Part shown: positions 12,001 through 18,000 of the stretch, piece after piece | Layout: the number at the start of each line of letters is the position of its first letter | Position numbering within the stretch: the first letter of the stretch is position 1 | DNA from: a virus | Lineage: Duplodnaviria; Heunggongvirae; Uroviricota; Caudoviricetes | Strand: one strand, 5' to 3' | Length of the DNA: 23,895 bases | IMG/VR virus record: IMGVR_UViG_2529292728_000036 | Position numbers: made by a program

Positions 12001-15000
12001 GTTGTTGCTGATGGCATTCCTATGGGGGTGCTTAATGATGGAACCCCTTATCTAACTCTTTACGGTTTAGCCAAATTATGTGGCATAGATGAAGCACCTC
12101 TTCGAATGTTTACATCTAACTGGGAGACTGAAAAAAATAAGCCAAGAGGACAAAAAGTAGCTGCATACTTAGCTGAGAAAGGATTTAACAACGTTGACCG
12201 ACTGTATACCCGCGTCATAAATAGCTCAAACGTTGAAACACATGCTTATCCTGACTATGTTTGTATGGCTGTTCTTAGGTACTATGCCCTCGATGCCACA
12301 AATTTTGATAGATCCGTTGCAATAGGAAACTTTGTTCGCTTAGCTGAATACACGCTCAAGCGAATGATCTATGAAAAAGCAAACTATAACCCCAACGCTG
12401 CCATAGACGTTTCATTCGAAAACTATAGAGCTCGTATAAAGCTAAACAACCAAATACCAACAACTCATTTTGCTGTATTCAGAGAAATAGCAGATATTGC
12501 AATGACGTTAATAGGAAATGGCTTTCCTATGGATGATACCACGTCACTAGACGGAAGCGTTGGAAATCACTGGGGAAAGTATTGGACAAAAAACAACCTT
12601 TCCGAGAGATTTGGTGATAGAGTTCAATATCAACACATTTTCCCTGAAAACTACAGGCAATCTGCAGCCAACAAGTACATAAAAGCCTGGATTTACCCTA
12701 TCGAATCATTGGGGCTATTCAGGAAATGGCTTCACGATAACTATGCCATGGAAAAACTACCCAAATATCTTGGAAACAAAAAAATCAGTAACATAACTGA
12801 ACTATTGGAAGCCGTCAAAAAACCAGCATTACCAAACCAGTGATAAAATTATTTACGCTACAGCAACCCGGACTCTGCGCCGGGTTTTCTTTGCCTCACG
12901 TTCGCCCACCTAAAAAACATAACCAATTGTATTTATTGATGTAACTCGCTAAACCATGCAGTTATGATCCCTGCCGCATAACCTTCATCAGCCACATTTT
13001 CAAAAATAAATTTCCTTATATATCAGAATCATACTTCGTAGAGTTAATAAATCACCAAAATTCGTACCAATAGTTCTTGATAATGTCGAACTATTGGTTC
13101 ATTATTATCGTCGTCAGCAGGACGCATTACTCACCAGGGCGGTGAATATACAACGATTCGAATATGAATCTACGGCGCTGACAAAGCGCAATAACCAAAG
13201 TGAACTTTGGGGTGTGGTGAAGGGTTCATGGACGGGAATATGTCGCACGTAAAGCGGCGAGGCCTGCGGGACTATTGCCGAATTGAAGTAGGCCGAAACA
13301 GGTCGAAATGGGTCTCCCACCTACCACACCACCAAAGTTCATCAGGAGGTCTATATGACACGCAGAACTCAGTTCAAAGGCAATTCACGTTCTCGTCGTC
13401 GTGAGCGTTTAAAGGCAAAGGCATTAGCTAACGGCGTACTGGCCCGCGAAGAAGCAATAAGTTCAGAAGTATTACACCGCCCTACTCTAAGCAGAGCGCA
13501 GATTCAGGCTAAAGGTACTCACGAAACGCCTGAGCGCATAGAAGACGCTAAGCCAATTAAGTTCATGGCACAGGACGTGATCTGGCAACAGAAAGAATAC
13601 AGACGCAATCTGGAGCGAGCGGCCATTGTGTACGCGAATGAGTTTGGACATAAGCAACCAGAAACTGGTGTATGTCTTCCAAACGTAGCCATTTACGCGG
13701 CAGGCTACCGGAAATCAAAACAACTGACGGCGAGGTGACTTGTGTTGGTCGCCAGAAAATGAAATTAGGCAGCAAACCACTTATTTGAGGTGAGATATGA
13801 CAAAATCATGGAGCGTACCTTTTCCTGAATCAGAAACTGAACATGATGGAATGCCTGTTTTCTGGAGATTCCAGGCGACAGTTGAAGAAGATGGGATAAA
13901 AATATTCGCACTTCAATATATAGCTTTTCATCAGACAGAGCATTATGCATGGTTGAACCGCCCCGGAAATCCTGGAGACTAAACTCCCTGAGAAAGAGGT
14001 AAACAGGATGACTAAAAATACTCGTTTTTCCCCCGAGGTCCGTCAACGGGCAGTTCGTATGGTTCTGGAAAGTCAGGGCGAATATGACTCACAATGGGCG
14101 GCAATTTGTTCCATTGCCCCAAAGATTGGCTGTACACCAGAGACTCTGCGTGTGTGGGTTCGTCAGCATGAGCGGGATACCGGGAGTGGTGATGGTGGAC
14201 TCACCACCGCTGAACGTCAGCGTCTGAAAGAGCTGGAACGTGAAAATCGTGAACTGCGCCGCAGTAACGATATCCTTAGCCAGGCTTCCGCTTATTTTGC
14301 GAAGGCGGAGTTCGACCGCCTCTGGAAAAAATGATGCCACTGCTGGATAAGCTGCGTGAGCAGTACGGGGTCGGACCGGTATGCAGCGAACTGCATATTG
14401 CCCCGTCAACGTATTACCATTGTCAGCAACAGCGACATCATCCGGATAAACGCAGTGCCCGTGCGCAGCACGATGACTGGCTGAAGAAAGAGATACAGCG
14501 CGTATACGATGAAAATCACCAGGTATACGGTGTGCGTAAAGTCTGGCGTCAGTTGTTACGGGAAGGTATCAGAGTGGCCAGATGCACTGTGGCACGTCTC
14601 ATGGCAGTTATGGGACTTGCCGGTGTTCTCCGGGGTAAAAAGGTCCGTACTACCGTCAGCCGGAAAGCCGTTTCCGCAGGCGACCGCGTAAACCGTCAGT
14701 TCGTGGCAGAACGTCCTGACCAGCTGTGGGTGGCTGATTTTACTTACGTCAGCACATGGCAGGGCTTCGTCTATGTGGCGTTCATCATTGATGTGTTTGC
14801 CGGATGTATCGTGGGGTGGCGAGTCTCATCGTCTATGGAAACGACATTCGTGCTGGATGCACTGGAGCAGGCGTTGTGGGCCCGTCGGCCGTCCGGCACA
14901 GTCCATCACAGTGATAAAGGTTCTCAGTATGTATCACTGGCCTACACGCAGCGGCTTAAGGAAGCCGGATTACTGGCATCAACAGGGAGTACTGGCGACT

Positions 15001-18000
15001 CGTATGACAACGCGATGGCTGAGAGCATCAATGGTCTTTACAAAGCGGAGGTAATACACCGTAAGAGCTGGAAAAACCGGACAGAAGTGGAACTGGCCAC
15101 ACTAACGTGGGTGGACTGGTATAACAATCGACGATTGCTGGAAAGGCTGGGCCATATTCCTCCGGCAGAAGCAGAAAAAGCTTATTATGCTTCCATCGGA
15201 AATAATGATCTGGCAGCCTGAGTTCACAGATAAAATACTCTCCAGGAAACCCGGGGCGGTTCAGGTTGGTTCCTGCGCATTGGATTGTTAATTTTAAACC
15301 AGCACCAAATCAGTGGTTACAGGAATGGAAACAAAGGAGAAATAGATATGCAATTAAGAAAGTAGCAAAAAATGCAGAAAGATCTTTTGCATTCCCAACG
15401 AAGAAACTTGCCATTGAAAGTTTATTGCGCCGGAAGAAATACCATTTAATGAGAATCAAACAAGATTTGGCTGTTGTATCAACTCTTGTTGATGGTATGA
15501 AGAATATTGATACATCAACACCAGATATTGAATATAACTTTGGACACAACCAAGAAACAGAAAATTGGGTATTTTATTAGTACGAATAAGCACTGTGTAT
15601 TCATTCCAACGAGTGAATACACGGAGCAATGTCGCTCGTAACTAAACAGGAGCCGACTTGTTCTGATTATTGGAAATCTTCTTTGCCCTCCAATGTGAGG
15701 GCGATTTTTTATCTGTGAGGATATGAACAGATGTCAAACATCAAAAAATACATCATTGATTACGACTGGAAAGCATCAATAGAAATTGAAATCGACCATG
15801 ACGTAATGACAGAGGAAAAACTTCACCAGATTAATAATTTCTGGTCAGACTCTGAATACCGACTCAATAAACACGGCTCTGTATTAAATGCTGTATTAAT
15901 CATGCTGGCGCAACATGCTCTGCTTATAGCAATTTCAAGCGACTTAAATGCATATGGTGTTGTGTGTGAGTTCGACTGGAATGATGGAAATGGTCAGGAA
16001 GGATGGCCTCCAATGGATGGTAGCGAAGGAATAAGAATTACCGATATCGATACATCAGGAATATTTGATTCAGATGATATGGCTATCAAGGCCGCCTGAG
16101 TGCGGCTTTACCGCATACCAATAACGCTTCACTCGAGGCGTTTTTCGTTATGTATAAATAAGGAGCACACCATGCAATATGCCATTGCAGGGTGGCCTGT
16201 TGCTGGCTGCCCTTCCGAATCTTTACTTGAGCGAATCACCCGTAAATTACGTGACGGATGGAAACGCCTTATCGACATACTTAATCAGCCAGGAGTTCCA
16301 AAAAATGGATAAAACACTTATGGCTATCCAGACTAAATTCACTATCGCCACTTTTATTGGCGATGAAAAGATGTTTCGTGAGGCCGTCGACGCTTATAAA
16401 AAATGGATATTAATACAGAAACTGAGATCAAGCAAAAGCATTCACTAACCCCCTTTCCTGTTTTCCTAATCAGCCTGGCATTTCGCGGGCGATATTTTCA
16501 CAGCCATTTTCAGGAGTTCAGCCATGAACGCTTATTACATTCAGGATCGTCTTGAGGCTCAGAGCTGGGCACGTCACTACCAGCTGATCGCCCGTGAAGA
16601 GAAAGAGGCAGAACTGGCAGACGACATGGAAAAAGGTCTTCCACAACATCTGTTTGAATCACTCTGCATCGATCATTTGCAACGCTGCGGGGCCAGCAAA
16701 AAAGCCATTACCCGTGCGTTTGATGACGATGTTGAGTTTCAGGAGCGCATGGCAGAACACATCCGGTACATGGTTGAAACCATTGCTCACCACCAGGTTG
16801 ATATTGATTCAGAGGTATAAAACGGATGAGTACAGCACTCGCAACGCTGGCAGGGAAGCTGGCTGAACGTGTCGGCATGGATTCTGTCGACCCACAGGAA
16901 CTGATCACCACTCTTCGCCAGACGGCATTTAAAGGTGATGCCAGCGATGCGCAGTTCATCGCATTGTTGATCGTCGCCAACCAGTACGGCCTTAATCCGT
17001 GGACGAAAGAAATTTACGCCTTCCCTGATAAGCAGAACGGCATCGTTCCGGTGGTGGGCGTTGATGGCTGGTCCCGCATCATCAATGAAAACCAGCAGTT
17101 TGATGGCATGGACTTTGAGCAGGACAATGAATCCTGTACATGCCGGATTTACCGCAAGGACCGTAATCATCCGATCTGCGTTACCGAATGGATGGATGAA
17201 TGCCGCCGCGAACCATTCAAAACCCGCGAAGGCAGAGAAATCACCGGACCGTGGCAGTCGCATCCCAAACGGATGTTACGGCATAAAGCCATGATTCAGT
17301 GTGCCCGTCTGGCCTTCGGATTTGCTGGTATCTATGACAAGGATGAAGCCGAGCGCATTGTCGAAAATACCGCATACACTGCAGAACGTCAGCCGGAACG
17401 CGACATCACTCCGGTTAACGATGAAACCATGCAGGAGATTAACACTCTGCTGATTGCCCTGGATAAAACATGGGATGACGACTTATTGCCGCTCTGTTCC
17501 CAGATATTTCGCCGCGACATTCGAGCATCGTCAGAACTGACACAGGCCGAAGCAGTGAAAGCTCTTGGATTCCTGAAACAGAAAGCCACTGAGCAGAAGG
17601 TGGCAGCATGACACCGGACATTATCCTGCAGCGTACCGGGATCGACGTGAGAGCTGTCGAACAGGGGGATGATGCATGGCACAAATTACGGCTCGGCGTC
17701 ATCACCGCTTCAGAGGTTCACAATGTGATAGCAAAACCCCGCTCCGGAAAGAAATGGCCTGACATGAAAATGTCCTACTTCCACACCCTGCTTGCCGAGG
17801 TTTGCACCGGTGTGGCTCCGGAAGTTAACGCTAAGGCGCTGGCCTGGGGAAAACAGTACGAGAACGACGCCAGAGCCCTCTTTGAGTTCACTTCCGGCGT
17901 GAATGTTACTGAATCCCCGATCATCTATCGCGACGAAAGTATGCGCACCGCCTGCTCTCCCGATGGTTTATGCAGTGACGGCAACGGCCTTGAACTGAAA

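Follow-up and report, generated by a model that had tools for sequence, protein, structure and literature searches.

IS629 is the commonest mobile element of enterohemorrhagic Escherichia coli (EHEC). Insertions of the IS629/IS1203 type are known from EHEC lambdoid prophages, among them JLK-2012, BP-4795, Stx2a_WGPS6, and prophages of O157:H7 Sakai and EDL933. Here we describe one such insertion sequence (IS) in a stretch of 23,895 nucleotides (the window; IMG/VR virus record IMGVR_UViG_2529292728_000036, Caudoviricetes), where a complete IS629-type element splits a 156-amino-acid (aa) gene that lies directly after the antiterminator gene N in the early-left (pL) operon of a Shiga toxin 1a (Stx1a) prophage. 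The window's copy has the same length, ends, −1 frameshift, ALIL pseudoknot, 3- to 4-bp target duplication, and prophage preference as the known insertions. It differs from them in being a minor sequence variant, and it occupies a position, nucleotide (nt) 157 of the gene, that is particular to this prophage lineage.

A second system for comparison is the transposase-dependent excision of IS629 promoted by the protein IEE. In the account of Kusumoto et al. (2011) cited in PMC9943667, this excision leaves adjacent deletions, from a few nucleotides upward. In vitro, IEE extends 4- and 6-nt microhomologies but not 2-nt ones (PMC9943667; bioRxiv 10.1101/2023.06.07.543989). The iee gene is carried on SpLE1-like elements in O26:H11, O111:H8, and other Shiga toxin-producing E. 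coli (PMC9397093) and occurs in >33% of E. coli assemblies (PMC9943667); the excision of IS600 from lacZ in O121:H19 provides a comparison case (PMC9397093). At our locus, an IS3-family element is likewise present in one branch and absent from a near-identical sister, whose junction can be explained by a 4-nt microhomology, a length that IEE extends in vitro. However, this is a natural polymorphism inferred from genomes, and the gene is left frameshifted instead of being reactivated.

The third comparison is with lambda ral and sieB, which also lie downstream of N in the pL operon and are also small, AT-rich, and dispensable. In contrast to this shared position, the 156-aa protein has no sequence relationship to either, and its predicted fold has no match in the PDB.

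The IS insertion matters little as such, as most IS629 copies are in prophages and this copy is already in RefSeq. What is new here is a set of IS-free sister prophages with a 4-nt deletion exactly at the insertion site. The pair formed by the IS-bearing and 4-nt-deletion alleles is probably a natural case in which an IS was gained and later lost with a scar. Such a pair could mark a lineage of the O111:H11-related clone, and it could be used to test IEE-type microhomology joining outside the laboratory. The gene itself represents a conserved, widespread phage family with an unsolved fold, and its natural null alleles are ready material for functional study.

An IS629-type element within a conserved early gene

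The window covers the early and immunity half of an Stx1a prophage that is integrated beside torS in the genome of E. coli O111:H11 strain 88-19539 (NZ_CP077491.1); a 2.5-kb query around the insertion matches this genome at 100% in a single piece. The earlier note on this DNA had placed the element between N and ea10 in an Stx1 prophage, and both the context and the position are correct. It had also described a complete 1,310-bp element with TG...CA ends, orfA and orfB, an A6 run, and a flanking GGT duplication, and each of these features was found, with 22 of 25 matches between the terminal inverted repeats (Table 1). The element starts TGAACC and finishes GGTTCA; its length falls in the 1.2- to 1.55-kb range of the IS3 family, and the imperfect TG...CA repeats and the 3- or 4-bp target duplication are also those of that family. 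The orfB product scores 313.3 bits against NCBIfam NF033516 (transpos_IS3; cutoff, 160). A joined 404-aa OrfAB coding sequence is annotated for the element, with the RefSeq label "IS3 family transposase, programmed frameshift," and we predict that orfA and orfB are expressed as this 404-aa fusion through a −1 frameshift.

The element is 96.5% identical to the copy annotated as IS629 in phage JLK-2012 and 99.1% identical to a subset of O157:H7 copies, while no 100% match was found outside its own lineage. By ISfinder convention, an isoform shares at least 95% nucleotide identity with a named element. Related copies carry the RefSeq name "IS1203 family." We conclude that this is a complete, apparently functional IS of the IS629/IS1203 type (IS3 family).

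The gene on either side of the element can be restored exactly. Translation of the 5′ fragment continues into the IS to give a 61-aa stub (13797-13982; RefSeq WP_001427229.1), which consists of 52 native residues and nine residues from the IS end (LNRPGNPGD). When the IS and one GGT are removed, so that 13797-13953 joins 15267-15580, the result is a 471-nt open frame encoding 156 aa, just as the earlier note had claimed for the two flanks. The note had also asked whether relatives carry an uninterrupted allele. They do: at the DNA level, the restored 471-nt sequence is 100% identical to 933W L0079, Min27 ORF20, and genes of BP-4795, phi24B, and many Stx1a and Stx2a phages, and 99.2% identical to HK97 gene 45, and an uninterrupted gene is present in about 590 of 5,426 complete E. 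coli genomes at 97.5 to 100% identity. Phage JLK-2012 has an empty site, with read-through at the insertion point and a single GGT. Homologs in Escherichia, Pectobacterium, Cronobacter, Brenneria, Rosenbergiella, and others (n = 21; 55 to 99% identity) share 40 invariant residues, which argues that the disrupted gene is real. The restored protein also matches phrog_1636 ("unknown function") over its full length (E 2.7e-112; residues 1-156 against profile positions 1-156). The disrupted gene thus belongs to the 933W L0079/HK97 gp45 family (PHROG 1636), which is conserved, AT-rich, and situated directly after N.

In the account that we propose, an IS629 isoform inserted once, by the usual IS3-family copy-out/paste-in route, between nt 157 and 158 of the 471-nt gene in the pL operon of a lambdoid Stx1a prophage, duplicating GGT. 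The gene was thereby cut after codon 52, leaving the 61-aa stub and a promoterless, start-less 3′ remnant. That an insertion took place and left a null allele appears practically certain.

The 61-aa stub is encoded on 45 contigs of public assemblies, including a draft from the era of the DEC collection; among complete RefSeq genomes, the insertion occurs only in 88-19539. We fetched nine loci with the same junctions, and in 8 of these 9 the IS has no mismatch to that of the window. Two IS-bearing loci have a cI/replication module different from that of the window. Because the same junctions and an identical IS recur in dozens of public assemblies, we regard this as a single historical insertion that has been inherited and exchanged, clean and not private to one strain. 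The description of the insertion as "recent, clean" therefore stands in its second word, while "recent" has to be softened: the identical IS is on 45 public contigs, some with a different immunity/replication module. Exchange between prophages by recombination has also occurred, since the same N-gene::IS-ea10 block stands behind a different repressor and a DnaB-type replication module. The event is of a well-known kind and is already annotated in RefSeq, which lists the transposase and both gene fragments.

In three loci (L015, L021, and L031), the identical N-gene::IS-ea10 block is found behind a different, 234-aa repressor. The replication module of the same three loci encodes a DnaB helicase with LAGLIDADG/intein-like hits.

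A 4-nt deletion at the insertion point in IS-free sister prophages

A search with a "healed" 3.8-kb stretch recovered six complete genomes that have the same prophage at the same chromosomal site (torS) but lack the IS, namely those of strains 2014C-3050, 2013C-4538, 12867, 12089, OkiPb01691, and OkiPb01707 (loci L006 to L011). Over 22.6 kb, the window and the prophage of 2014C-3050, which we compared in full, differ by only 5 substitutions and two 1-nt indels. The 156-aa gene is annotated as "frameshifted" in every one of the six sisters, and the lesion is a 4-nt deletion exactly at the IS insertion point (equivalent to window 13950-13957). The wild-type junction reads GCATGGTTGGTTCC, the junction in the six sisters reads GCATGGTTCC, and that in the window reads GCATGGT, then the IS, then GGTTGGTTCC. 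An 80-nt probe over the 4-nt-deletion (−4) junction has a 100% match in exactly 6 of about 594 complete genomes with the gene.

The flanks of the element offer two ways of being rejoined. TGGT closes the left flank, and the sequence to the right of the IS reads GGT-TGGT-TCC. Joining through the 3-nt duplication GGT gives the wild type, while joining through the 4-nt TGGT gives the sister allele, GCATGGTTCC. An IS with an intact transposase is present at that exact site in the window and in loci L012 to L020, which are very close relatives of the sisters. The excision step would join the flanks through TGGT instead of the GGT duplication, and the gene would stay dead. We consider it probable that the −4 allele is the TGGT microhomology scar of a near-precise IS excision in the sister branch, because the deletion is exact to the site and the identical TGGT-TGGT repeat is unslipped in all other complete genomes that carry it. 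The explanation as a whole, insertion followed by near-precise excision in the sister branch, we hold to be likely. The order of the two events and any involvement of IEE are what we infer from the alleles.

An alternative is that the −4 deletion arose by replication slippage of TGGT-TGGT in a wild-type gene and that the IS, in another branch, independently hit the same nucleotide. The cI/BstA module of these prophages is also found linked to wild-type alleles (L023 and L027). Yet the −4 allele is absent from about 588 other complete genomes with the identical repeat, so slippage there is rare. Only about 3 small indels separate the seven near-identical prophages over 22.6 kb, and we estimate a chance of about 1 in 1,000 that one of these would fall within a few bases of the IS site. 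Slippage would also demand two rare events on one haplotype within a handful of single-nucleotide polymorphisms (SNPs). We therefore judge it unlikely.

Several points nevertheless weigh against gain and scarred loss of the IS. The deleted unit is one of the two copies of a 4-nt tandem repeat, and slippage in the wild type would give the same sequence. SNPs are too sparse to nest the −4 genomes within the IS-bearing group. The ancestral base at position 13085 is G, and three −4 genomes with A there form a sub-branch; at 21115, only the window and one draft have G, while the ancestral A is found in 222 other records. The IS-bearing contig L030 has the ancestral A at 21115, like the −4 genomes, which points to one root haplotype for both states. 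The phylogeny thus neither proves nor contradicts descent of the −4 allele from the IS allele. A wild-type copy on exactly the window's haplotype was not found, so the ancestral state is inferred; the closest wild-type relatives with BstA show 98.5 to 99.5% identity. Finally, the null status of the allele and the expectation of little polarity (see below) rest on sequence logic.

We rejected the reverse route, from the −4 allele to the window allele through a 4-bp TGGT duplication: it needs three extra bases (GGT) on the IS end, and the wild-type sequence would have to be regenerated by coincidence.

Public proteins include a further allele at this site. P0144 (84 aa, 6 contigs) represents a −1 allele, GCA-GGTTGG, the sequence that remains when TGGT and the IS are taken out of the window. 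This allele, which was not found in complete genomes, may be a second excision footprint.

Repeated disruption of the gene

The 156-aa gene has been disrupted more than once. IS629-type copies are located at nt 404 in JLK-2012/DEC5E and relatives (target duplication TAC) and at nt 415 in O157:H7 strain 9000 and Z-series strains (target duplication CAG). Truncated public proteins indicate two further, reverse-orientation IS629 copies, after codons 42 (P0041) and 55 (P0038). Other alleles have frameshifts near nt 133, 154, and 185 or, in one case, an in-frame deletion (proteins P0036, P0039, and P0143 to P0148). Even so, the exact wild-type protein is encoded on at least 1,000 contigs, versus 45, 34, 4, and 57 contigs for the main null alleles.

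So many lesions could be read as adaptive. If the gene were harmful to the lysogen, for example as a leaky toxic early protein, its repeated loss would be selected. Such a view would fit the number of independent null alleles (IS629 at nt 157, 404, and 415, two reverse stubs, frameshifts, and a deletion) and the fact that the gene is still dead in the −4 allele after loss of the IS. However, the intact state is by far the commonest, and neighboring genes are also hit by IS629, namely ea10 in RM13322 and an ATPase gene in SCPM-O-B-7615. Moreover, IS elements are generally concentrated in prophages: in O157, 62% of IS629 copies are in prophages or prophage-like elements (PMC3271280), and a separate study located 69% of IS elements in prophages, which made up 12.9% of the genome (PMC5359411). 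Neutral decay of a dispensable prophage gene is the simplest reading, because the intact protein is far commoner and IS elements concentrate in prophages. Selection against the gene may be possible, but we consider it improbable as the driver of these disruptions.

An apparent shared orientation of all the IS copies was rejected as an ascertainment effect, as the search tool used with the 2.5-kb query joins same-strand pieces and the copies represented by P0038 and P0041 are reversed.

Expected effect on the early-left operon

Besides inactivating the gene, the IS could act through polarity, blocking pL transcription, lowering cIII, kil, gam, bet, and exo, and thus crippling induction or recombination functions. 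The 1.3-kb element does place its own translated open reading frames (ORFs) between N and the downstream genes, and it contains a weak terminator-like hairpin at 14721-14736. However, both N and the likely pL region (promoter-like site 13077-13105) precede the IS, and in the window every gene downstream of it is intact. In lambda, polymerase modified by N passes both intrinsic and Rho-dependent terminators, and classical work showed that N relieves the polar effects of IS insertions. Since transcription that starts at pL, ahead of the IS, and is modified by N should continue through the element, we would expect little polar effect on downstream genes after induction; polarity as the main consequence of the insertion seems doubtful. 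Read-through from pL during induction could even raise transposase and favor transposition or excision of the window's copy, but this is speculation.

An assembly artefact, with a repeat collapsed or misplaced into the prophage, is negligible as an explanation: although IS629 occupies 11 to 14 places in the 88-19539 genome and multicopy elements are the usual cause of such errors, the same junctions and 3-bp duplication are shared by a closed genome and nine or more independent drafts, and the duplication and the perfect restoration of the frame are signatures of real transposition.

The PHROG 1636 protein

The restored gene has a GC content of 35.7%, compared with 47.4% for the window and 52.9% for the IS, in line with the earlier description of it as AT-rich. 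It had also been assigned to a slot where lambda carries sieB and ral. The position holds, but homology does not: the protein belongs to PHROG 1636, which is without a Pfam or NCBIfam family. A lambda SieB or Ral homolog was rejected, as the 156-aa protein matched no Pfam or NCBIfam family. Pfam gave no family at E ≤ 0.01 for the restored protein and 73 relatives, NCBIfam gave none for the restored protein, and PADLOC returned a chance-level hit only. A literature search found no published function for 933W L0079 or HK97 gp45.

Structure and representative searches used P0001, a protein 99% identical to the restored sequence. With a 73-sequence alignment from a full-library hidden Markov model search, AlphaFold gave a model with a predicted local distance difference test (pLDDT) score of 95.6 and a predicted template modeling (pTM) score of 0.82. 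With the 21 close homologs, pLDDT was 55.7, so confidence was reached only with the deep alignment. The predicted fold combines a three-stranded sheet, made of long hairpins, with short helices and one helix of 33 residues. No PDB fold matched the model, and matches in BFVD were only to uncharacterized proteins of Erwinia, Rhizobium, Delftia, Tenacibaculum, and Cellulophaga phages. The middle third of the protein is very basic (pI 11.1).

A terminator-like hairpin between the disrupted gene and ea10 (Table 1) suggests that N and the 156-aa gene may form a first, N-independent segment of the pL transcript. A more ambitious idea is that the protein is an immediate-early host-takeover or anti-defense factor and the locus a natural IS629 on/off site, with insertion at several positions and excision that would either restore the gene or kill it permanently. 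This idea draws on the confident predicted fold without a solved relative and on homologs scattered over unrelated phages. We give it little credence; if true, the on/off site would modulate the behavior of Stx prophages in EHEC.

Prophage context and other features

The annotated order in NZ_CP077491.1 is stxA1a/stxB1a, Q, the nin region, O/P, cII, a cro-like gene, cI, a 300-aa gene, N, the IS, ea10/DUF2528, cIII, kil, gam, bet, exo, xis, and int, followed by torS. Coordinates of the features discussed here are collected in Table 1.

Table 1. Features of the disrupted locus and its surroundings (window coordinates unless a locus is named)
Feature	Position	Strand	Remarks
stxB	1556-1825	−	
stxA	1835-2782	−	
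cI-like repressor	11064-11771		
N antiterminator gene, 127 aa	13355-13738	+	Pfam PF25694 (N_peptide), E 2.1e-15; directly upstream of disrupted gene
5′ fragment of disrupted gene	13797-13953	+	Codons 1-52 and first base of codon 53
TGGT ending left flank	13950-13953		4-nt microhomology with TGGT at 15267-15270
GGT target-site duplication, left copy	13951-13953		
IS629-type IS (IS3 family), complete	13954-15263	+	1,310 bp; TG...CA ends; transposase reads in the same direction as pL transcription
Left terminal inverted repeat (IRL)	13954-13978	+	22/25 positions match reverse complement of 15239-15263
orfA, 108 aa, helix-turn-helix (HTH)	14008-14334	+	Pfam HTH_Tnp_1, E 1.4e-12; N-terminal part of NCBIfam transpos_IS3
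ALIL frameshift-stimulating pseudoknot	14289-14405	+	Rfam RF01497, 121.5 bits (gathering score 50), E 1.7e-31
A6 slippery run	14326-14331		Within ALIL pseudoknot, directly before orfA stop
orfB, 296 aa, DDE/rve catalytic part	14331-15221	+	−1 frame relative to orfA; Pfam rve, E 1.3e-26; HTH_21; rve_3
Right terminal inverted repeat (IRR)	15239-15263	−	
GGT target-site duplication, right copy	15264-15266		
3′ fragment of disrupted gene	15267-15580	+	Remainder of codon 53 to stop; no native start codon; RefSeq pseudogene "missing N-terminus"
Terminator-like hairpin and T-run	15683-15704	+	Between disrupted gene and ea10, tL1-like position; consensus scan only
ea10-like gene (DUF2528)	15731-16099	+	Pfam PF10800, E 3.7e-47; next gene downstream
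Other IS copies in the same gene	L001 3902-5211; L003 2413-3722		

Instead of the intact 127-aa N ORF, several RefSeq records for the prophage list only a 69-nt "regulator, incomplete" pseudogene. Between the cI-like repressor and N, a 300-aa ORF (11941-12843, +) encodes a homolog of the abortive-infection protein BstA, which is supported by hits to phrog_6287 (E 2e-131) and PADLOC BstA (E 4e-106) and by a precomputed hit to Pfam BstA_C. RefSeq labels this ORF "hypothetical protein," and a terminator-like hairpin (12865-12886) comes after it. Downstream of ea10, the Rfam Lambda cIII thermoregulator (16159-16217, +; 88.5 bits) overlaps the beginning of cIII, an arrangement also seen in lambda.

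Beside stx1, there are Rfam hits at the gathering level to the small RNAs AgvB (1203-1262, +) and STnc100 (1264-1477, −). At 6095-6293 (−) and 5308-6042 (−) within the nin region, an Ant antirepressor gene is preceded by matches to C4 antisense RNA, its a1/b1 targets, and isrK; this is an antisense immunity module of the P1/P7 type. A KilAC-domain antirepressor gene (4512-5233, −) is frameshifted by a 1-nt deletion at 4583 in 88-19539 and in the IS-bearing drafts L029 and L032, and it is intact in all six sister prophages.

On the chromosome of 88-19539, the dcuB-mel-adi-phn-mdtN genes lie about 70 to 110 kb from the torS-linked prophage (L028; NZ_CP077491.1, 5185000-5225000). In K-12 these genes are far from torS, which suggests a large rearrangement in strain 88-19539.

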